DNA of 64,000 nt from Byssovorax sp. (GTDB taxonomy: Bacteria; Myxococcota_A; Polyangia; Polyangiales; Polyangiaceae): assembly GCA_040006075.1 (NCBI GenBank), contig JBDTXR010000002.1, positions 1,556 through 65,555 on the forward strand, given 5' to 3'. Under the pieces are notes generated by a model. That model was not told where the DNA came from, ran no database searches, and was given only the letters and a program-made list of their open reading frames with translations. A program made the translations under genes and the position numbers. Positions 4,977 through 64,000 of this stretch are shown here, in pieces (within the stretch, counting starts at the first letter, position 1; the number at the start of each line of letters is the position of its first letter).

Positions 4977-5789
4977 ATGGGGAGCAAGGGAAAGAAAATG
5001 ACAACTCATCTCGATCGCTGGCACACCGACGCCGTCGCCCTCGTCGCCACCGAGAATCCGCTCCGCGTGCCCTACGACGTCTTCCTGAGCGAGGCCGGGC
5101 AAGTCGCGAAGTTCTTCGCCAGACACTGGGAGCCAACTCCGGGCCTCCCGGGCCTCTCGCGAGTGAAGGCGCGTTTGCCGAAGAGCACCGGAGACGACAT
5201 CCTCTCTCTCGTCCACGCAACGCAAGAGCAGCAGACCAGGCTCCTTCTCCTCGTCGATCCGGTGGTCGTGGACCAGGGTGAGCGCGCCCGTTTTCTCATC
5301 GATGAGCTGGAGTCCGCGCTGGAGTTCCTGCTCGACGACGACGTCACCGAAGAGGCTGATACCCAGCTCGCCGCCCTCCAGGCGTTTCACGCCCAGGCCG
5401 GGCAACGATCGAGCGTGCTGCACCAGGCGTTGAGCGATTATGCCGCTCTGGCCGGGTCGCTGCAAGCGCGGCTCGTCGCTGTGGACGAGGCGTTCGACGT
5501 GGCGCTCATCGCCGAGGCCAGGGCGCTCGGCACGAAGCTGGCCGCTGCGCCGGCCGCGCCGCCTCCGGCGCAAGAGGCGGTGAAGAGCGCGGTGCTCGCG
5601 CGCAATGGCCTGCTCACGCTGCTCGGCAACAAGATCGCGCTGGTGCGCAAGGGCGCGGCGCATGTGTTCCGGGCCTTCCCGGAGACGTATCGCGAGGTCA
5701 CGAGCACCTATGAGCGGCGGCGCCGGGCGGCGGCGCGGCGGGCGAAGGGGAAAGAGGCGGGCAAGGCGAAGGGCGAGGGCGGCGGATGA
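4977..5789 (+). CDS. hypothetical helical protein with a Lys/Arg-rich C-terminal tail
   Basis: ORF 4977..5789 with an ATG start. Its composition is balanced and Leu/Ala/Glu-rich, unlike the Arg/Pro/Gly-rich overlapping shadow ORFs. It is divergent from the AlbA_2 gene. No family recognised. Confidence 0.6.
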   Translation: MGSKGKKMTTHLDRWHTDAVALVATENPLRVPYDVFLSEAGQVAKFFARHWEPTPGLPGLSRVKARLPKSTGDDILSLVHATQEQQTRLLLLVDPVVVDQGERARFLIDELESALEFLLDDDVTEEADTQLAALQAFHAQAGQRSSVLHQALSDYAALAGSLQARLVAVDEAFDVALIAEARALGTKLAAAPAAPPPAQEAVKSAVLARNGLLTLLGNKIALVRKGAAHVFRAFPETYREVTSTYERRRRAAARRAKGKEAGKAKGEGGG

Positions 5790-5848
5790 GGGCCAATCGC
5801 CTTGGTATTGCTCGTCTCCGCACCTACCTTTGCGCATAGGCTTTCTTT

Positions 5849-8674: not shown

Positions 8675-11600
8675 ATGTCCGATTCGACGAGGCGCGCCGC
8701 GAAGGCACCGAGCACCGGCTCGGGCAGCGGGCGGCGGGAGCTCTTGCAGACGCTCCCGCTCCCGCTCGCGCAGCTCCTCCGCCGCGCGCTCAACGGCAAG
8801 AGCGCTGCCGAGCGCCACCACGGCGCCTTCTACCTCGCGGAGGGCACGCTGAAGATCGCCTCGGCGGCGCGCGTGGGCCTGTGGATGGATCGCGCCCTGG
8901 TCCCCGGCGGCGATCTCGCGCGCAAGCTCGAGGCGCTGGTGCTCCCGTCGCTCGGCCACTGGTGCGAGATGCTCCGCGAGCTCACCCTCGCGCTCTCGAA
9001 GCGCCCCGACGTAGCGCTGCTCCCGCCCCTCTGCGACGCGGCCGCGCTGGCGCGCAAGCGGCCCGAATGGGCCCACGTCGCGGCCCTCTGTCGCCGCGGC
9101 GTCGAGGTCGAGATCTTCGGCGAAGAGCCGGCAAAACAAGCCTTGCGACGCGGGACGCTCGGGTTCTTCGATCTGGTGGTCGCCTACCGCAACGTGGTCA
9201 TCGGCCACGGCGCCCAGCGCACCTCGGCGTTCTACGAAGAGCTCGCGCGCCTGCTCCTCGACGCGGTGGTGGAGGTGCTCGCCGATCCCGCGCTGCTCGG
9301 CGGCCTCGAGCTCGCGCAGGCGCGGCTCGAGCTCGACGGCGAGACCAGCCACACCACCTGGTACGCGCTCACCGGGCTCGCGGGCCTGCCCCGCGACGAC
9401 GACGCGGGCGACGCTGTGCCCGGGCATCTCTACCTGATCGGGCCGGGCGCGCGGGTGCCGCTGCACCCGCTGCTGGTGTACCGGCAGGAAGACGAGCTCG
9501 GCCGCGAGCAGGTCGGATTTCTCAACAAAGCGGCGCGCAAACGGCCCGATCGCGAGGGCGTCGCCGGCGCCGTGCAGCGCGCGGAGTACCTTGATTACGC
9601 CTCCGGGCAGACGCTCGACGACGTCGACGCGCGCGCCGCGCTCACGGCCCTGCTCGCGCGGCTCGAAGGGCGCGCGGTCACCCCGAGCGACGTCGACGCG
9701 AAGGCCCTCGCGACGCGCGCGGAGGCCGCCGCCGAGCCCGGTGACGACGCGGCGCCCGTGGGCGCGACCATCGGCGATTTCGAGCTGATGGGCGAGCTCG
9801 GGCGCGGATCGATGGGCGTGGTCTACAAGGCGCGGCAACGAAGCCTCGGGCGCGTCGTCGCCCTCAAGGTGCTGCCCCCCGCGCTCGCCGCCGACCGGGT
9901 CGCGCAGAAGCGCTTCAAGAACGAGATGCTCGCGCTGGCGCGCTGCGATCACCCCAACGTCGTGCGGATCCTCGCCACCGGCTCCGACGGCGACAGCGAC
10001 TACTACGCGATGGAGTACGTCGACGGCAGCGATCTCGCGCGCGCCGCGAGCCTGCCGGTCGATCGCCTGGCCGAGCTCTTCGCGGGCGCGGCCGACGGCC
10101 TCGCGCACCTCCACGAGAACGGGATCTTGCACCGGGATATCAAGCCCGGAAACCTCATGGTCACCGCCGACGGCCGGCGCGTGGTGATCATGGATCTCGG
10201 CCTCGCCAAGCTCGCCGACGCGTCGCAGGCGCTGACCTCGGCCGACGTGAAGATCCTCGGCACGCTCCGCTACATGGCGCCCGAGCAGCTCCAGCGTCGC
10301 CTCGTCGAGGTCGACGCGCGCGTCGACGTGTACGGCCTCGGCGCCGCCCTCTACGAGCTCGCGACCGGGCGTCCGATCCACGACGGCGAGACCGAGGTCC
10401 GCCTGATCCAGCAGGTGCTCAACGAAGAGCCGATGCCGCCTCGGCGCGCCAACCCCGCGCTTCGAAGCGATCTGGCGGCGGTGATCCAGGCCGCGACGGC
10501 GAAGCTCCCGGCGCAGCGCTACGCGTCCGCCGCGGCGTTCGCCGAGGATCTCCGCGCGGTGGCCCGCGACCAGCCGATCCGGGCGCGGCCCCCCGGCCTC
10601 GCGCGCACGGCGATGCGCTGGGCGAAGCGTCATCGACCTCTCTTCCTCGGCCTCGGCGCGGCGCTGCTCGCGATCGCCGCGGGCGGCGTCGCCCTCTGGG
10701 ATCATCAGCGCCTCAAGGCCGGCTACTACGCCTTCTACATCGATCGACGAGGCGCGTTCGAAGGCGTGGGCGAGGTTCCCGGGCCTGACGGGCGAAGCTT
10801 CACGTTCAAGGTGATCCGCCGCGGCGGCCGCATGGTGACGGTCGAGTGCGTCAATGGACGCGGCGCGCCCCACGCGTGCGGCGACTTCTCGTCCGTCGAG
10901 TTCCACTACGCCGACGACGGCGCGATCTCGCACCGCATCTTGCGCGGTCCGACCGGGAGATTCCTGGCGAAGTACGCGTACACCTACCAGGGTCAGAAGC
11001 TCCAGATCCTGCGGCTCGATCGCCACGATCTCCCGCTGCCCGAGCTCGGCGACGTGGCCATGTACCGCTTCGAGGTCGACGCGCAGGGGTTCCGTCGCAA
11101 GGTCACGTACTTCAACGATCGCGGCTCGCCGCGGCAGAGCTTCGGCGCCTACGGCTACGACCAGACCAACGACGAGTTCGGCGAGCCAACTACGCTGGTG
11201 TTCCTCGACGAAGCCGGCGCGCCGCTGGTGCGCAGCGACGGCGTCGCGCGCGCGACGATCACCTGGCTAGGGGCCGGCAACGAGGCCTCGCGCTCGTTCT
11301 TCGGGGTCGACGGGAAGCCGGTCCTCAACCCCGGGTTCGCTGCCGAGATCCGTCACCGGATCGACGCGCGCGGGAACCAGATCGAGCGCGCCTTCTACGG
11401 GGTCGACGGCAAGCTCGCGCTCCAGGCCGACGGCATCGCGCTCTGGCGCGCGCGCTTCGACGAGCACGGCTGTCTCGTCGAGAAGCGCTTCTTCGGGCCG
11501 GACGAGCGCCTGATCGTCAACAAGCTGGGCTTCGCCTCGATGGCCTCGAAATGCGACGAAAACGGCCGGGAAATCGAGCGGGCGCACTTCGGCGTGGCGG

Positions 11601-19896: not shown

Positions 19897-22800
19897 ATGG
19901 GCGACGTGACCGCGGTGATGATGGACTGCATCACCGAAAAATCAGGGCATTCCGTGACGCCGATGGCGGTGAGCGTGTGCATCACGCCAGCGGCTCCGGC
20001 GCCGCTGCCGCTCCCGTACCCGGTGGTGGCGAGCTCGATCGAGGGCATCGGCGACGCGCCGATGCGGACCAAGATCAACGGCGCGCTGATCGGCACCGTG
20101 GGATCGGTCCTGAAGACCTGTCACGGGAACGAGCCCGGGACGCTGAAAGAGGTTGTGAGCCTCAACACCGCCGGCCCGTGCTTCATCCTCATGGGCGCGC
20201 CGGTGGTGCTCTGCGAGCTCGGGATGATGGGGATCACCGGCAGCCTGTGCATGCAGAACAAGGCCCCGACCCCCGGCGCCGGAGGCAGCGCCAGCGACGC
20301 GAGCGGAACCGGCGGCGCGGGCAGCGGCGGGGGCGAGGCGGGCGGCGGCGGGGGCTCGGGCCATGGTCCAGGCGGCCCGGCCGGCGGCGGCGGCGCGGGC
20401 GGCGGAGGGAGCAACAGCGGCGCGGCCGGGCCGGGGGCGTCGTCGGGAGCGGCGGCGGAGCATCAGTGTCAAGGCGGACACCCGATCGATCTCGTGACTG
20501 GATACGTCGTCGATGAAGCGACCGACATCTCGCTCCCCGGCGTCATCCCGCTCTATGTAAAGCGGGTCTACTCGTCGTCGCGCCGGAGCGACAAGACAGC
20601 CACGCTCGGCGCGGGCTGGGCGCACGGGTTCGAGCAGCGCCTCGTCGAGGCCGAGCGGACGATCACCCTGCGCGAGGCCGAGGGCCGCTCGATCTACTTC
20701 GCCAAGGTCAAGCCCGGTGAGAGCACGTTCCACCGGCGCGAGCGGATGACGCTGGAGCGGGATACCGACGGCGGGTATCGAGTCCACGATCACCGGACGC
20801 GGCTCACGCTCGTCTTCGCCGGTGACGGGGTCAACGCGCCGGCTCCCCTCTCCTCGATCCGCGACGCGTGGGGCAACGCGATCGTGCTCGAATACAGCGG
20901 CGCGCGGCTCCTGCGAATGATCGACACCGCGGGTCGCGAGGTGCGCGTCCTCTGGAAAGAGGCGAGGATTGCTCGGCTCGAGGTGCGCTCCGAAGACCGG
21001 TTAGAGCAATGGGTGGACTACACCTACTCGGGCTCGGGGTGCCTCACCGCCGTCACCGACGCGCTCGGGGCAACGGAGGAGTTCGAATACGACCGCTTCA
21101 ACCGCATGACCGCCGCCGTCCTCGCGACCGGCGCGCGCTTTCAGTACGAGTACGAGGCGGACACCGGGCGTTGCCGCAAGACCTGGGGCCCGAAGGGCCT
21201 CTACGCGATCGAGCTCGAGGCCGACAAGGCGACGAAGACGACGCACGTCGACGCGGAAGAGCCGCGGATCATCACCTGGAACGATCAAGGGCTCGCGACC
21301 CGCGAGGCGACCCCCGGCGGGACGATCCTCGAGGACCGCGCCTACGACGATGATGGCCTCTTGATCGCCAGGGTCAACGGCGCAGGCGAAGGCGAGCAGT
21401 ACTGGTACGACGAGCGCGGGAACCAGATCCGCAGCGTCGACGCCGCGGGAAACGTCACCGCGTGGGAGTACGACGCGCAGAGTCTGCCCGTCAGCATGGC
21501 CACGCCCGACGGGCTGGTCACCCACTATGGTCACGACGACAAGGGCGCGCTGACCAGCGTCACCTACCGCACCGGAGAGCGCTATTCCCTGGGCTACGAC
21601 GCCCGGGGCCGGCTCACCGCGGTCCACGGACCCGCCGGGCCCGTGTGGGGTTTCGAGTACGACGCGAAGCACGATCTGGTGGCCCAGGTCGACGCGCGGG
21701 GCGGCCGGACCACCTTCGAGCACGACGCGGTGGGGCGCCTCGTTCGCCGCACCGACGCGCTCGGGCGCACCTGGAACGCGACCTACGATCGGCTCGGGCG
21801 CGCCATCGGGGTGCGCTACCCGGACGGCGGCATGGTCCAGCGGGCGTACGACGCGATGGGGAAGGTCGTGCGCGAGACCGACGCGCTCGGGAACGTCACG
21901 TCGATGGAGTACGCCGGCATGGGCGTGCTCACGCGGCTGGTGCAGTGTGACGGCGGCGTCTGGACGCTCGCCTACACGAGCCACGAGCGCATCCGGGAGA
22001 TCAAGAATCCTCTCGGCGAGACCTATTCGTTCACCTACGACGACGCCGGCCGCCCGGTCGAGGAGAAGCGCTTCGACAAGAGCGAGCTCGCGTATCTGTG
22101 GTCCGACGGAGGGCGCCTGTCGCGGCTCACGTATCCCGACAAGAGCTCTCGCGCCTTCTCCCACGACCGCGTTGGCCGGCTGATCCGCGACGAGGGCAGC
22201 GACGGGAGCACCGTCGCGTACGCGCGCGATCGGATGGGCCGGATCCTCGGCGCCACGCTGGAGGAGCATGGGCGGCGGGTTCAAACGATCTTCGAGCGCG
22301 ACCCCGTCGGTCGCGTGCTGGTCGAGCGGCAGGGCGACCGGGCGATCCGCTATACCCACGAAGCGAGCGGACGGCGCACCAGCCGGGTGATGCCCGACGG
22401 CGCTACCACGCAGTATGCCTACGACGCAGGCGGCGCCCTCTCGGCGATCGATCACGACGGGCACAAGCTGGTGTTCGAGCGCGACGTCGCGGGTCGCGAG
22501 ACGCGCCGGGTGGCGGGCGGGCACGTCGCCATCCAGAGCACCCACGACGCGATGGATCAGCTGATCGAGCAGCGCGCCACCGTGCCTTCGCCGGGCGGCG
22601 GCGTCCCTGCGGTGCTGCTCCAGCGGCAATGGCAGTACGACAAGGCCGGTCGGATCACGAGGATCGACGACGCGCGGTGGGGAGCGACGGCCTACACCTA
22701 CGATCGGATGCACCGGCTCGTCGGCGCGGCGCAGGCGACGCAGCGAGAGGTGTTCGAGTACGATCCTTCGGGCTCCCTCGTCAGGATGCTCGAGGGGCTG

Positions 22801-54915: not shown

Positions 54916-56334
54916 TCAAAGCTCGGTCGAGCCCTCGGCCTCGTGCGCGGTCGTCGCGATGGAGCCGTCGACCGGCACCGGCGGCAGGAGGAATCGTCCG
55001 GCGATCAGCGCGCTCACCCCGGAGATCGCCGAGGCGATCAGCACTCCGATCTTGGCCGCGCCCAGCATCGGGCCCGCAGGAAACGCGAGGTTGGCGATGA
55101 AGATCGCCATGGTGAAGCCGATCCCGGCCACCACGCCGACCAGGGTGACACCGCGCCAGGTGACCCCGCGCGGCCGCGCAGCGAGCCCGAGGCGAACGGT
55201 GATCGCGCTCGCGGCGACCACGCCAATCAGCTTGCCGAAGACCAGGCCGAGGACGACGCCGACGATCACGCCGGCCGACGCCGAGTCGGTCCAATCGACG
55301 CCTCGGAGATCGACCCCGGCGTTGGCCAGCGCGAAGATCGGCATGATGCCATAGGCGACCCAGGGGTGGAGCGCGGCCTCGAGCCGGACGACCGGCGGCA
55401 CCGCCTCGCGCTGCGCCTGCTCGATCCGCGCGAGCGCGTCGAGGAGATCGCGCGCGTCGTGGCCTGCGACGTGGCGGCGGCGGACCTCGTCGATCGCGTC
55501 GTCCACCGTCGCGAGGAAGCCGCGCTCGCCGAACCAGGCTTTCGCTGGCGTGAGCAGCCCGAGGATCACCCCGGCGATGGTGGGGTGAACGCCGGTGACC
55601 AGGATGCCCGCCCAGAGCACGACGCCCGGGATCACGTAGGCCGCGGTGCTGCGCACCCCGACGCTGCGGAGGAGGCCCACGCCGCCGAGGCCGAGCCCGG
55701 CGATCGCCACGCCGGTCCACGAGAAGCTCGATGAATAGAAGACGGCGATGACGATGATCGCGCCGATGTCGTCGATGATCGCCAGCGCGAGCAGGAGCAC
55801 GCGCACCGCCGCGGGGACGCGCTTGCCGAGGAGCGCGAGGACGCCGACGGCGAACGCGATGTCGGTGGCCATGGGCACGCCCCAGCCGCGCTTCGCGGGC
55901 GCGCCGTGGTTGACCGCGAAGAAGATCGCCGCCGGCACCAGCATCCCGCCGAGCGCCGCGGCGATCGGGAGCGTCGCGCGCTTCACGTCCGAGAGCTCGC
56001 CGTCGTGCATCTCCCGCCGGATCTCGAGGCCGACCACGAAGAAGAAGACGACCATCAGCGCGTCGTTGATCCAGAAATGAAGGGGCTTGCTCGCGCTGAA
56101 GCCGCCGGCCCCGATCGAGATCGGCGTGTGCCAGAGGTGCTCGTACGACGAGCGAAGCGGGGAGTTGGCCCAGACCAGCGCGACCAGCGCGGCGGTGAGC
56201 AGGAGGATGCCGCTGGCCGCCTCGACGTGGAGGAAGCGCTCGATCGGGCCCGTCACTCGCTGCAGCGCGCGCCGCGCGGGCGACAAGGCGCCGGGGGGCG
56301 CGTCGAGAACAGGAGGAGTCGCGGGCCTGGACAT
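54916..56334 (-). CDS. nhaA: Na+/H+ antiporter NhaA
   Basis: [29 protein letters not shown] and [25 protein letters not shown] are the NhaA signature. The protein is polytopic. Confidence 0.9.
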
Positions 56335-56482
56335 GAGTTGACCGTGAGCGGGAAAGGGGACGGCGCCAGATCGCTCGGCGAATTCTGAAAGACTTTTTCG
56401 AGCCGTAGCATGGGTTCAGCGCCGGGCGCGAGAGGTCGCGCGCCAGGCCGCCGACGCCCCGCGGAGCAGCGAATCGGCATCT

Positions 56483-56496
56483 GTTTGACCTCAAAC
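56483..56496. promoter_or_regulatory. palindrome copy 1: GTTTGA-cc-TCAAAC (candidate operator)
   Basis: Read directly from the sequence. It lies in the nhaA / Cys-rich-lipoprotein divergent intergenic region, inside a local AT-rich patch. Confidence 0.5.
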
Positions 56497-56577
56497 GATC
56501 TCGACGCCGGCGGCGAGCGGGCGGAGCCTCAGCGCCGCGGCTGGCGCCGGGGGTTCCGCTCCCTGGCGGAAAAAATC

Positions 56578-56591
56578 GTTTGAGCTCAAAC
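56578..56591. promoter_or_regulatory. palindrome copy 2: GTTTGA-gc-TCAAAC (candidate operator)
   Basis: Read directly from the sequence. It is preceded by aaaaaatc, lies 95 bp centre-to-centre from copy 1 and 76 bp upstream of ATG 56667. Confidence 0.5.
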
Positions 56592-56666
56592 AATCGCGCG
56601 AGCAGTCGCGCCGCTCGCGTGTTAGGAAAGCAGACGATCGCCCTCAAAATATCGGGAGTCAGAGCA

Positions 56667-56939
56667 ATGAGAACCTGGGTTGCATGGGTCGTGACGGCGC
56701 TGTTCCTGGTGATCGCCGGGTGCTCGCCCGCGCCGAAGAACGTGGCGTGCTCCAACGACGGCGAGTGCCAGAAGGACGACGCGCGCTTCCACTACTGCCT
56801 CGAGTCGCGCTGCGTGGAGTGCGTCGGCAGCGCGAGCTGCGGCGAGGGGCGCACCTGCACCGACGGCGCCTGCACCTGCTCGTCCGACGTGGGCTGCCCC
56901 GGCCAGCGCTGCGACCAGGGCGTGTGCAAGGCGCGCTAG
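56667..56939 (+). CDS. small Cys-rich lipoprotein
   Basis: GGGAG lies 8 nt before ATG 56667, inside ORF 56580..56939. Lipobox is LFLVIAGC. The mature ~70 aa carry 12 Cys in repeats of the type C.....C....C ([39 protein letters not shown]). Confidence 0.65.
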
Positions 56940-57066
56940 GGGCACTGATTCACGATGTCACGACGGATCCCTTCGCAGCGCCAGGCGGCCGCGTGCGCGC
57001 CTGGACTTGATCGGCGGACCCGTCTAGGCTCGACGGATTGGGGCCCGCTCGCGTGAAGAAGATCTG

Positions 57067-57465
57067 ATGCCGGCGAGCGGAATCGACGAGCAGGTGCGGC
57101 GCTTCCTCGCGACCCACGTCAGCTCCATCGAGCAGCTCGAGGTGCTCCTGCTCCTCCGCGCGAACGAGGGCCGGGAATGGAGCGCGGAAGAGTGCAGCCG
57201 CGAGCTCCGGTCGGACCGTCGCTGGATCGAGGAGCGTCTCGGCGATCTCGCGGCGAGAGGCTTCCTGGTCGCGCACGAGATCGAGGCCGTCTTGAAGTAC
57301 CGTTATGCGCCGACGCCCAGCGACGCCCGCGCGCTCGTTGATGCAGTGGCGAAAGCCTACAAAGAGCGGCGCCACGGCGTGATCAACCTCATCTACGGAA
57401 AGATCGAGAGCGACGCCGTGTCCTTCTCCGACGCGTTCGCGTTCATCAAGAAGAAGGGAGGATGA
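57067..57465 (+). CDS. hypothetical cytoplasmic protein, possible winged-helix DNA-binding fold
   Basis: 132 aa. SIEQLEVLLLLRANEGREWSAEECSRELRSDRRWIEERLGDLAARGFLV reads like a MarR/wHTH-type segment, but this is a by-eye call. Its stop lies 4 nt before the next ATG. Confidence 0.55.
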   Translation: MPASGIDEQVRRFLATHVSSIEQLEVLLLLRANEGREWSAEECSRELRSDRRWIEERLGDLAARGFLVAHEIEAVLKYRYAPTPSDARALVDAVAKAYKERRHGVINLIYGKIESDAVSFSDAFAFIKKKGG

Positions 57466-57469
57466 AGGG

Positions 57470-57730
57470 ATGGCCGAGGCCGTGTACATCCTCTGCGCGC
57501 TGACCAGCGCGCTCTGCATGGTGCTGCTGCTCCGCGGCTACTTCGAAAAAAAGGTCCGTCTGCTCCTCTGGGCCGGCCTCTGCTTCGCGGGCCTCACGGT
57601 CAACAACGTCCTCCTGTTCGTCGATCTCGTCGTGCTGCCGAACGTCGATCTCTCGCTGCCCCGGAACCTCTCGGCGCTCGTGGGCGTATCCCTGCTGGTC
57701 TATGGGCTCGTCTGGGACACGCGAGAATGA
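57470..57730 (+). CDS. small three-helix membrane protein (paralogue A)
   Basis: 86 aa, very hydrophobic. It shares LLLRGYFEKKVRLLLWAGLCFAGL with FFLRFWRKTGDRLLAAFSLAFGL of the next gene. It may belong to a DUF family of small membrane proteins, but I am unsure which one. Confidence 0.6.
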   Translation: MAEAVYILCALTSALCMVLLLRGYFEKKVRLLLWAGLCFAGLTVNNVLLFVDLVVLPNVDLSLPRNLSALVGVSLLVYGLVWDTRE

Positions 57731-57773
57731 GCAGACCCGAGCGAAACCCGTCGCCGTCGCGCGCGAGGAACCC

Positions 57774-58052
57774 ATGAGCCATTTCGTCGAAGGTGCGATC
57801 ATGATGGGCCACGCCATCGTGGCGCTGTTCTTCCTCCGCTTCTGGAGGAAGACCGGCGACCGCCTCCTGGCGGCCTTCTCGCTCGCGTTCGGGCTGATGG
57901 CGGTCGTCCGCGTCCTGCCCAGGATCGTGCCTGTCTCGGGCGAGCACACCCACTACATGTACGTGCTCCGGCTCCTCGCCTACGTGCTGATCCTCGCCGC
58001 GATCATCGACAAGAATCGATCGGCGGTGCAACTGGCACGCTCCGGCGAGTGA
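57774..58052 (+). CDS. small three-helix membrane protein (paralogue B)
   Basis: ATG 57774 is preceded by GAGGAA, inside ORF 57702..58052. 92 aa, paralogous to 57470..57730. Confidence 0.6.
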   Translation: MSHFVEGAIMMGHAIVALFFLRFWRKTGDRLLAAFSLAFGLMAVVRVLPRIVPVSGEHTHYMYVLRLLAYVLILAAIIDKNRSAVQLARSGE

Positions 58053-58084
58053 GCCGGGACTCCGGCCCGGACCGGAGGAAATTA

Positions 58085-58098
58085 GTTTGAGGTCAAAC
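58085..58098. promoter_or_regulatory. palindrome copy 3: GTTTGA-gg-TCAAAC
   Basis: Read directly from the sequence. It is flanked by aaatta and gaatag, in the 91-bp convergent gap between 58052 (+) and the MscS gene stop at 58144 (-). Confidence 0.45.
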
Positions 58099-58143
58099 GA
58101 ATAGCGCCTCACCGGAGCGCCGCTCCCGCGGCCGCCCCCGCGA

Positions 58144-59004
58144 TCAGGCCGGGGCAGGCACGCCCACGGACGCGCCGAGCGCGGCCGCCGCGACCCGGCG
58201 GTGGAGCACCGCGGGGGGCAGCACGCCGTGCTCGCGGAAGGCCTCGATCACCCGCTCGGTCACGTCGGTCTCGAAGGCCTTCTCGTACTGCACGTCGAGC
58301 ACGTAGGCCTTGGCGCGGAGGCGCACCGCGAAATACTCGCCCTGGATCACCTGGTTCACCAGCACCACCCAGGGCTTCTGGAGGTACACGTAGCGGTTCG
58401 AGATCAGGCACTCTTCGACGAGGCGCTTCGCCGAGGCGACGTCCTGATCGACGCCGACGAAGAAGTCCATCTGGATGAGCATGTCGAGCGCGCCCCAGTT
58501 CCCCGAGGACACCATGTCGGTGAGGAACTTGTTGTTGGGGATGGTGACGACGTTGTCGTCGAGCGTGACGAGGCGGACGCTGCGCAGCCCGATGGCGCTG
58601 ATCTCTCCGTAGGTGCCGCCGAAGGTGACGCGGTCGCCGACCTGGAACGGCCGGTCGATGATGATGATGATCCCGGCGAGCACGCTGGCGGCGAGATCCT
58701 TGAGCGCGAAGCCGATGGTGACGGCCGCGGTGCCGGTCAGCGCGAGCACGACCTCCTTGGAGAGGTTCACCGCGAGCCCGGCGGCGACCGCGATGCCGCC
58801 GAGGTACATGACGAAGCGGGTCAGCGTCGCGACCTGGTTCAATGCCAGGCGCCGGTGGGCGAACTGGTTACCAAGGCGGGTGAAGACGCCGGTGAGAAGG
58901 CGGACGACGAACCACGTGACGAACAGCGCCACGGCCCCGGAGATGACGCCGGAGACGCGGATCATGTCGACGACGTTGAGGTCCTTGACGGCGGTGGGAT
59001 CCAT
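58144..59004 (-). CDS. small-conductance mechanosensitive channel (MscS family)
   Basis: Three TM helices, then IIIIIDRPFQVGDRVTFGGTYGEISAIGLRSVRLVTLDDNVVTIPNNKF, the MscS beta-domain signature. It starts 24 nt downstream of the preceding gene's stop. Confidence 0.85.
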   Translation of the reverse strand: MDPTAVKDLNVVDMIRVSGVISGAVALFVTWFVVRLLTGVFTRLGNQFAHRRLALNQVATLTRFVMYLGGIAVAAGLAVNLSKEVVLALTGTAAVTIGFALKDLAASVLAGIIIIIDRPFQVGDRVTFGGTYGEISAIGLRSVRLVTLDDNVVTIPNNKFLTDMVSSGNWGALDMLIQMDFFVGVDQDVASAKRLVEECLISNRYVYLQKPWVVLVNQVIQGEYFAVRLRAKAYVLDVQYEKAFETDVTERVIEAFREHGVLPPAVLHRRVAAAALGASVGVPAPA

Positions 59005-62479: not shown

Positions 62480-64000
62480 CTACGCCTTGTGTACGTGGCC
62501 TTCACCCGGAGCCGAGTTAGGGCGCTTCACGCGCAGGTAGGCCTTGGCCACGGCCGCCTCGTCGATGAAGCCCACGAAGCGACCGTCGGGATCGATGACC
62601 GGGACCTGCCGCACTCCGTGCTCGACCATCGCCGCGAGCGCGGAGTGCACGTCGTCGTCGAGCCCCACGGACACCCCCGGGCGCATCAGGTCCGACGCGG
62701 TGAAGAGCAGCAGCAGCTGCGGATCCGAGGCCAGGATCTTCAGCTCGTCCGTGGTGATGATCCCGCAGAGCCGCCGCGCGCCGTCGATGACCGGGTAGAC
62801 GTCGAGGCCGGGGTTTCCGCCCGTGGCCTTCGAGACCGCGTCGCCGCCCTGCGCTGGCGAGAACGTGGAGAAAGGCCCCACCAGATCGACGATCTCGCTG
62901 ACGCGCAGGCCTTCGAGCGCATCCATGACCGAGCGATCGTTGAGGTGAATGCCGTCCTGCTCGAGCAGCGCCTCGTAGATCGGGAGCGGGCGAAAGCGAC
63001 GCGCCAGGATGTACGAGGTCATGTTGGCGATCATCAGCGGGAGGATCAGCGAGTAGCTGCCCGTCATCTCGATGATGATCAGCACCGAGGTCATCGGCGC
63101 GCGGATGATCCCGGCGAACACCGCGCCCATGCCGACCAGCGCGAACGCGCCCACCGGCTCGCCGAGGTGACCGAGCAGCACGTGATCGAGCGCGCCGAGC
63201 GCGCCGCCGAGCATCCCGCCGATGAACAGCGCGGGCGCGAAGATCCCGCCGGCGCCGCCGCTGGAGTACGAGAACACCGTCGCGACGACCTTCATCAAGC
63301 ACAGCACCAGCATCACGCGGACGCCGATGTTGCCCGTCAGCGCCTGCCCGAGCATCCCGTAGCCGCCGCCGGTGACGCCCTGCACCTGCATCGTCCCGAG
63401 CGCGACGACCGCGAGCAACCCCGTGGCGGCGCCGCCGATCGCCGGGCGTCCCCAGCCGGGAATGCGCGATCGCTTGAACCAGCCGCGCAGGTTGATCAGG
63501 CTGTCGGTGAAGGCCACCGACACCACCGCCGAAGCGAGGCCGATCAGCGCGTAGATCAGCAGCGACGACGCGTGGTGGAGCCCGTAGTCCTGCGGGACGC
63601 TGAACACCGGGTGCTCGCCGAGCACGCTGCGCTCGATCACGGCGGCGAGCGCGGCGGCGATGATCACGCCGGTGAGGAGCGACTGATCGAGGTTGCCGAT
63701 CACCTCCTCGATCGTGAACGTCACCGCGGCGATCGGCGCGTTGAACGCCGCGGCGATGCCGGCTGCGACGCCGACGGGGAGCAGCCGCCGCAGCCCCTTC
63801 GGCGACACCCCGACGAGGCGCCCCAGCAAGCTGGAGACGCCAGCGCAGATCTGCACCGTGGGCCCTTCGCGGCCGAGCGACGCGCCCGATCCGAGCTGGA
63901 TCGAGCTGATGAAGAACTTGCCGATCGAGTCGCGCGCCCGCACCCGGCCGCTCTTGACGGCGAACGCGACCTTGACCTGGGGGACGCCGCTCCCGCGCGC
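62480..64000 (-). CDS. ClC-family chloride channel/H+-Cl- exchanger with a C-terminal CBS pair (5' end beyond the window)
   Basis: ORF 62480..63943(-) continues in frame to the window edge. My own translation of 64000-63944 is ARGSGVPQVKVAFAVKSGR, which contains the GSGIP-type motif. Also GREGPTVQ, GGIFAPALFIGG, and CBS-like segments (VSEIVDLV...VYPVIDGARRLCGIITTDEL; DLMRPGV...QVPVIDPDGRFVGFIDE). Confidence 0.85.
   Translation of the reverse strand, partial: ARGSGVPQVKVAFAVKSGRVRARDSIGKFFISSIQLGSGASLGREGPTVQICAGVSSLLGRLVGVSPKGLRRLLPVGVAAGIAAAFNAPIAAVTFTIEEVIGNLDQSLLTGVIIAAALAAVIERSVLGEHPVFSVPQDYGLHHASSLLIYALIGLASAVVSVAFTDSLINLRGWFKRSRIPGWGRPAIGGAATGLLAVVALGTMQVQGVTGGGYGMLGQALTGNIGVRVMLVLCLMKVVATVFSYSSGGAGGIFAPALFIGGMLGGALGALDHVLLGHLGEPVGAFALVGMGAVFAGIIRAPMTSVLIIIEMTGSYSLILPLMIANMTSYILARRFRPLPIYEALLEQDGIHLNDRSVMDALEGLRVSEIVDLVGPFSTFSPAQGGDAVSKATGGNPGLDVYPVIDGARRLCGIITTDELKILASDPQLLLLFTASDLMRPGVSVGLDDDVHSALAAMVEHGVRQVPVIDPDGRFVGFIDEAAVAKAYLRVKRPNSAPGEGHVHKA

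Follow-up and report, generated by a model that had tools for sequence, protein, structure and literature searches.

Introduction

Which protein, if any, reads a short palindrome, GTTTGA-NN-TCAAAC, that recurs beside a small gene cluster in DNA of Byssovorax sp. (Myxococcota)? We analysed a 64,000-nucleotide stretch of contig JBDTXR010000002.1 (positions 1,556 to 65,555 of the forward strand), hereafter the window, in which the palindrome occurs around genes for an Na+/H+ antiporter (nhaA), a small lipoprotein, a winged helix-turn-helix (wHTH) protein, two DUF5985 membrane proteins and an MscS channel. Judged by sequence, the motif is a conserved operator of a lineage-wide regulon, of the known MarR-type operator kind. 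To our knowledge, little has been charted of the transcription-factor regulons of Myxococcota other than those of Myxococcus xanthus development, and searching the literature by sequence for the motif returned only noise, with no description of it found.

Results

Three exact palindromes in the window

A pattern search of the whole 64-kb window located exactly three copies of the palindrome, in agreement with the positions and spacers given in a preliminary description of this DNA:

Site 1, 56483..56496: GTTTGAccTCAAAC, spacer CC, 149 bp upstream of the nhaA start codon.
Site 2, 56578..56591: aatcGTTTGAgcTCAAACaatc, spacer GC, 76 bp upstream of the lipoprotein ATG.
Site 3, 58085..58098: attaGTTTGAggTCAAACgaat, spacer GG, in the 91-bp gap between the convergent second DUF5985 gene and the MscS gene.

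No fourth match was found in the 64 kb scanned, even when two mismatches were allowed in the 12 specified bases. From base composition, 2.4e-4 copies per window would be expected, against three observed, and 100 of 100 dinucleotide shuffles of the window contained no exact match. The three AT-rich palindromes are real, and chance falls far short of explaining them. Single half-sites are also sparse (GTTTGA n=4, TCAAAC n=6), the latter including an isolated TCAAAC at 22281 that the preliminary description had singled out when it reported no further complete copy.

The starts of sites 1 and 2 are separated by 95 bp in the divergent region between nhaA and the lipoprotein gene, and site 3 lies 33 bp past the second DUF5985 stop codon, with 46 bp between it and the 3' end of the convergent MscS gene; both placements match those described before, the third copy having been put just 3' of the four-gene cluster. 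Every copy had also been said to sit in an AT-rich patch, which holds for site 2 (56568-56596) and site 3 (58076-58105) at a threshold of 36% GC or less over 25 nt, and fails for site 1, which is above it.

The motif is intergenic and accompanies a recurrent gene set

An exact-pattern scan of metagenome contigs for the 18-mer TNGTTTGAGSTCAAACNA returned at least 120 loci; the counts that follow are among the matches listed. Contigs of at least 60% GC, on which this AT-rich 18-mer is very improbable by chance, carry 52 of the 120 listed loci, and the other 68 are low-GC. In the high-GC loci, genes were called crudely from third-codon-position GC (GC3), the genes facing the sites were clustered and annotated with Pfam, and families were searched with tblastn. 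A single site out of 54 fell inside a called open reading frame, and for 37 of the 54 a gene start faced the site within 400 bp. In these high-GC loci the sites are almost always intergenic, not spread over random intragenic positions, the pattern that the preliminary description had wanted checked.

The neighbouring genes are likewise not arbitrary: of the 52 high-GC loci, 20 have at least one recurrent family no more than 2 kb from the site, versus 0 of 68 low-GC loci. A canonical MarR gene (PF01047/PF12802) lies within 2 kb in 11 of the 52, usually 24-116 bp away, and a gene for a Pal-like OmpA lipoprotein is present in nine, both families carrying Myxococcales, Polyangia or Archangium names. 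The DUF5985 pair was found in seven high-GC loci and trehalose-phosphate phosphatase in three; a GH15/TREH_N trehalase-like enzyme also recurs, as do CLC, NhaA, MscS and DUF389. Genes for otsA, otsB, trehalose-phosphate phosphatase, the GH15 trehalase-like enzyme, NhaA, NhaP, CLC and MscS all adjoin sites; many targets are, however, unrelated to osmoprotection, and other neighbours include an FAD-linked oxidase (three loci), the GspD secretin, an outer-membrane efflux protein, a multicopper oxidase, a glutathione S-transferase, a major facilitator superfamily transporter and rpmH-rnpA.

The dyad symmetry extends beyond the 6+2+6 core, often to 20-30 bp (for example GATCGTTTGAGCTCAAACGATC), and the full site consensus is approximately (A)TC/TA-GTTTGA-SS-TCAAAC-GA/TA(T). 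Perfect palindromes of 26-30 bp were observed at 5784-5809 of locus L010 and at about 155-184 of L153 (GCGATCGTTTGAGCTCAAACGATCGC and GAAAGATCGTTTGAGGTCAAACGATCTTTC), often with GATC included. At position 2773 of L103, the motif stands upstream of an apparent rpmH, recognised by position only, and of rnpA (PF00825). The rpmH-rnpA pair neighbours dnaA and the origin region in many bacteria. A scan of viral contigs gave 12 matches, all but two on contigs below 60% GC, and these were set aside as consistent with chance.

The motif is conserved upstream of related clusters

The closest homologue of the wHTH protein encoded in the window is in a Byssovorax metagenome-assembled genome (MAG; P0002, 82%), followed by homologues in Sorangium and Polyangium, with distant ones in many phyla. 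In three loci whose wHTH protein is 66% identical (L073, L074 and L075), aatcGTTTGAGCTCAAAC precedes the orthologous lipoprotein gene by 76 bp, just as site 2 does in the window, so that the conservation upstream of orthologous clusters that had been named as a check was indeed seen. In all three, a CLC channel gene has a further site 55-112 bp upstream of it, exact in L073, and a copy also stands in front of the CLC gene of L072. Further copies lie between the divergent mscS and wHTH genes of L211, ahead of an otsA/otsB fusion-GH15-wHTH-DUF5985 operon in L212, and in Minicystis rosea (L010), where the perfect 26-bp palindrome is 211 bp upstream of the wHTH gene. The mscS gene is also preceded by the motif in L205, as it is in L211.

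GTTTG-N4-CAAAC variants are found upstream of wHTH genes in other Myxococcota (L026, L028, L029, L048 and L069). Among 71 genome loci (L001-L071), the motif or this variant was seen in the 250 bp before the wHTH gene only in Myxococcota; in non-myxobacterial phyla, no perfect 6-bp inverted repeat with a 0-6-bp spacer and AT-containing half-sites recurred upstream of it. In L026, a Myxococcaceae MAG, two variant sites at 8942 and 9042 lie 100 bp apart between divergent CLC and Pal-like OmpA genes, a pair that echoes the 95-bp pair of the window with different helical phasing.

By comparison with these loci, site 1 is probably an operator for nhaA, and site 2 probably the operator of the lipoprotein-wHTH-DUF5985-DUF5985 operon. 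At an independent locus, L157, the motif lies between a divergent MarR gene and nhaA in an arrangement comparable to that of site 1.

A canonical MarR protein as the predicted binder

Being conserved, intergenic, promoter-proximal and placed before a coherent gene set in many Myxococcota, the palindrome behaves like a binding site for a dimeric winged-helix DNA-binding protein, in support of the dimeric binder that the preliminary description had proposed. We consider it probable that the sites are operators of a dimeric MarR-family factor serving an osmotic/envelope regulon in Myxococcota, with a canonical MarR orthologue as the binder. The features expected of a MarR operator are present, namely a dyad of about 14-20 bp, an intergenic promoter location and, in part of the lineage, an adjacent MarR gene. 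The linkage takes several forms: in L145 the site is followed by MarR-wHTH-DUF5985-DUF5985; in L126 and L187 by MarR-DUF5985-DUF5985, with no wHTH gene; and in L214 by otsA-otsB-MarR-NhaP-NhaP, whereas L029 and L164 have the gene order wHTH-DUF5985-DUF5985-MarR. In L157, MarR and nhaA diverge from a single site, mirroring the arrangement of nhaA in the window, and L026, L029, L048, L069 and L214 likewise have a MarR gene no more than 2 kb from the site. Across 17 loci, the MarR recognition helix, HPSTLTG(I/V)L-RLE, and wing, DP-D-RRA, are nearly invariant. Compared with NCBIfam, which contains no CosR or EctR model, the myxobacterial MarR protein has HpaR and OhrR as its best matches, far under the cut-offs, and searches of the PDB and of plasmids with it returned generic MarR matches only.

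In the mechanism that we propose, a MarR dimer would set its two recognition helices on the GTTTGA and TCAAAC half-sites. Where the site is close to a promoter or in a 5' leader, the bound dimer would block RNA polymerase, and an osmotic or ionic signal would release it, derepressing the genes. In the window, site 1 would then serve nhaA and site 2 the lipoprotein-wHTH-DUF5985-DUF5985 operon, site 3 being orphan or auxiliary.

Several observations weigh against this assignment. No MarR orthologue was detected by tblastn (1e-6) in the window, nor at a distance of up to 10-20 kb in L072 and L073, which are among its closest relatives, so that its presence in the source genome is an assumption, and in the Polyangiaceae clade of the window the 132-aa wHTH protein is the sole wHTH-type gene product seen near the sites. 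There is no site in the 10 kb around one MarR paralogue of Archangium (L216). Scans for sigma-70 and sigma-54 promoters in the intergenic regions of the window found nothing, and thus mapped no promoter at the three sites; site 3, like the copies in L089 and L135, is flanked by convergent gene ends, which offer no promoter for a repressor. Finally, about 60% of the high-GC motif loci listed lack any recurrent family within 2 kb, and the term 'osmotic' therefore fits part of the set only.

Genes around the sites

The genes next to the three palindromes are as follows:

54916..56334, minus strand: nhaA, Na+/H+ antiporter (PF06965, E 5e-142).
56667..56939, plus strand: small Cys-rich lipoprotein of 90 aa, first gene of the cluster, with lipobox VIAGC; its orthologue lies behind the same site in L073-L075.
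57067..57465, plus strand: 132-aa protein with a predicted MarR-like winged-helix fold (wHTH), with no Pfam or NCBIfam match.
57470..57730, plus strand: DUF5985 small membrane protein (a) (PF19447, E 1e-30).
57774..58052, plus strand: DUF5985 small membrane protein (b) (PF19447, E 1e-23).
58144..59004, minus strand: MscS-type mechanosensitive channel, convergent on site 3 (PF00924).

From its position behind site 1, nhaA is a putative regulon member. At the edge of the window (62501-63967, minus strand) lies a CLC-type channel homologue that is 35% identical to the motif-preceded CLC of L072 and whose upstream region extends past the window end at 64000. The first 2,000 nucleotides (1-2000) are less GC-rich than the window at large (0.61 versus about 0.70), with several AT-rich patches at 791-1228, and may be foreign or regulatory DNA. 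All sequencing runs that match the window are of soil-metagenome DNA.

The wHTH gene is followed by two DUF5985 genes in 65 of the 71 genome loci. This trio spans Myxococcota, Gemmatimonadales, Verrucomicrobiota, Bdellovibrionota, Planctomycetota, Actinomycetota and others, and in Sorangium, Gemmatimonadales and Pseudobdellovibrionaceae it usually stands directly 3' of a hybrid histidine-kinase or response-regulator gene, about 15 bp from it. The trio resembles a signalling or effector module that is so far uncharacterised.

Alternative readings of the palindromes

The preliminary description had noted a possible wHTH protein at 57067..57465, and the AlphaFold2 model (predicted local distance difference test, pLDDT, 88.5) agrees with it, predicting confidently a MarR-like fold with the full topology a1-a2-b-a3-a4-wing-a5-a6 and, as best PDB structure matches, MepR, AdcR, PecS and MarR. 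Could this protein, rather than a canonical MarR, bind the palindrome as a dimer, autoregulate its operon and control nhaA? The motif or its variant does lie upstream of its operons in the window and in L010, L026, L028, L029, L073-L075, L145, L164, L211 and L212, and no other regulator gene was found near the sites in the window, L072 and L073. The loci that display this linkage were, however, mostly fetched through the wHTH protein itself and form a biased sample; among the motif-anchored high-GC sites listed, it is near 2-3 of 52, against 11 of 52 for MarR. Helix a4 is the least conserved part of the family, with only residue L58 kept there, and differs strongly between the window, L010, L145, L164 and L092 despite an identical motif; the conserved polar residues are in a5 (Y98, E100, R101 and R102), and a6 is also conserved (A123 and F124). 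In Gemmatimonadales, Sorangium and Pseudobdellovibrionaceae the module occurs without the motif and, conversely, L126 and L187 have the motif and MarR-DUF5985-DUF5985 without the wHTH gene. Given the variable a4, the modules lacking the motif and the more frequent adjacency of MarR, the earlier suggestion of the 57067..57465 product as binder is not supported; we rank it second to canonical MarR and regard it as unlikely. We give less credence still to a broader scheme, which would make the trio an unrecognised membrane-associated signalling module using MarR here and histidine kinases/response regulators elsewhere (Gemmatimonadales, Sorangium and Bdellovibrionota): the DUF5985 proteins would detect ionic stress or tension in the membrane, the MarR-fold protein would relay this to canonical MarR or compete with it at the shared palindrome, and site 3 would be auxiliary, forming a loop with sites 1 and 2 over a distance of about 1.5 kb.

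It is comparably improbable that another global DNA-binding protein, nucleoid-associated or otherwise, reads the motif and that the MarR and wHTH genes are mere frequent targets. Such a protein could account for the heterogeneous targets (FAD-linked oxidase, secretin, outer-membrane efflux protein, multicopper oxidase, glutathione S-transferase and rpmH-rnpA), for the sites in convergent 3' regions and for the perfect 26-30-bp palindromes of L010 and L153, which exceed a typical MarR core. Yet no other regulator family recurs beside the motif, whereas MarR is beside 21% of the listed high-GC sites, usually at 24-116 bp, which is the classic signature of an autoregulated cognate factor, and the core matches the consensus of the MarR-type regulator CosR as cited in PMC8070244. 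We see very little prospect that the palindromes are structural or RNA elements (a REP-like repeat, a bidirectional terminator hairpin or a parS-like site) instead of operators. The location of window site 3, L089 and L135 between convergent genes would fit such elements, as would the minus-strand GC-rich hairpins, flagged by a simple scan, whose T-rich tail comes from the flanks of sites 2 and 3. However, the window copies fold weakly as RNA (-3.7 to -8.6 kcal/mol), with only site 1 departing from shuffles; no T-tract and no consistent adjacent hairpin was found at the 14 sites examined; most sites face gene starts, not gene ends; and the copies gather at a specific gene set, with none in the other 62 kb of the window. 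The outer GTTT...AAAC of the motif is similar to that of parS, TGTTTCACGTGAAACA, but the core departs from parS at four of its 14 bases, and no gene resembling ParB lies nearby.

An intrinsic terminator was rejected on the weak fold, the absence of a U-tract and the marginal adjacent hairpin matches, in line with the earlier remark that the palindrome is too short for an RNA hairpin terminator. The GC-rich hairpins to the right of sites 2 and 3, at 56597-56619 and 58103-58121 (minus strand), are terminator-like in the simple scan, and the latter comes after the MscS stop codon. A sigma-54 enhancer was likewise discarded, since no GG-N10-GC match with at most four mismatches to TGGCAC-N5-TTGCW was found in 56335-56666 or 58040-58150, as was a REP-like dispersed repeat, no copy being present in the remaining 62 kb and the copies of other loci lying at the recurrent gene set.

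Site 3 and copies at convergent gene ends

No gene start faces site 3. A site after the DUF5985 genes is absent in the closest relatives, L208 and L211, and at the position of site 3 in L073, and alignment of the site 3 region with relatives shows no homology. Downstream sites elsewhere are promoter-proximal to a gene of the recurrent set, CLC in L073 and DUF389 in L092. The bracketing of the cluster is therefore not conserved, and the DNA looping that had been suggested from it is not supported. The flanks of site 3 (ttaGTTTGAGGTCAAACgaat) resemble the CLC-upstream sites of L072 and L073, and in L073 the CLC gene holds the equivalent place after the DUF5985 genes; on these two grounds, site 3 may be an operator whose gene has been lost or moved by rearrangement, or may have an auxiliary role. 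Together with window 58085, the copies at L089 12768 and L135 598 lie between convergent gene ends, 3-46 bp from stop codons, where a roadblock or orphan role is possible.

Discussion

Our analysis points to a 14-20-bp operator that has almost no background in 70%-GC genomes, and hence to a sharp handle for mapping a regulon across the phylum. The regulon that could be mapped would be one of osmotic/envelope stress, comprising trehalose synthesis, Na+/H+ antiport, chloride and mechanosensitive channels and a Pal-like lipoprotein, and it would give DUF5985 and its MarR-fold partner their first physiological context.

The sites resemble the operators of classical MarR-family regulators (MarR, MexR, OhrR and SlyA), which are short, AT-rich intergenic inverted repeats, often in divergent regions, frequently duplicated and overlapping promoters, with the regulator gene adjacent and autoregulated. 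MexR sites, for instance, read GTTGA-N5-TCAAC. The palindrome differs from these operators in its 2-bp spacer and 6-bp half-site, and in serving many unlinked loci as a lineage-wide regulon where the classical regulators control one efflux or detoxification operon. With REP and bacterial interspersed mosaic elements (BIME), our palindromes share an intergenic location and the few copies at convergent gene ends; they differ in being AT-rich, few, tied to a gene set and mostly 5' of genes, without a tandem mosaic structure. Compared by description, PA3458 of Pseudomonas aeruginosa is alike in being a MarR-type regulator linked to osmoprotectant synthesis with many sites that have AT-rich ends and a variable centre, whereas its motif, TTTCAG//TTGGAA, is a different one and only partly palindromic (PMC8070244).

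A close parallel is that with CosR and EctR. Kotecka et al. (PMC8070244), citing Gregory et al. 2020, give TTTGA-NN-TCTAA as the consensus of CosR, the MarR-type osmoregulator of Vibrio parahaemolyticus; taken as TTTGA-NN-TC(T/A)AA, this consensus is matched by our core TTTGA-NN-TCAAA, with the same half-site and the same 2-bp spacer. Both act as repressors of compatible-solute synthesis and transport when salinity is low, and the regulator gene often lies in one cluster with the genes it controls (bioRxiv 10.1101/845297). By analogy, the myxobacterial system may work in the same way, with dimers of the MarR family controlling an osmoadaptation regulon that includes solute biosynthesis and transporters, and with the regulator often clustered with its targets. 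There are also clear differences. The solute here would be trehalose (otsA, otsB and GH15) instead of ectoine or betaine; the targets here add NhaA, CLC, MscS, the Pal-like lipoprotein and the DUF5985 module; and the hosts are high-GC Myxococcota, while CosR/EctR are from V. parahaemolyticus, V. cholerae and Methylomicrobium alcaliphilum. In addition, V. parahaemolyticus CosR is reported not to autoregulate, whereas the motif described here usually precedes the MarR gene. Should the myxobacterial regulator prove orthologous to CosR/EctR, the known range of this osmoregulator family and of its operator would reach from Gammaproteobacteria into Myxococcota.

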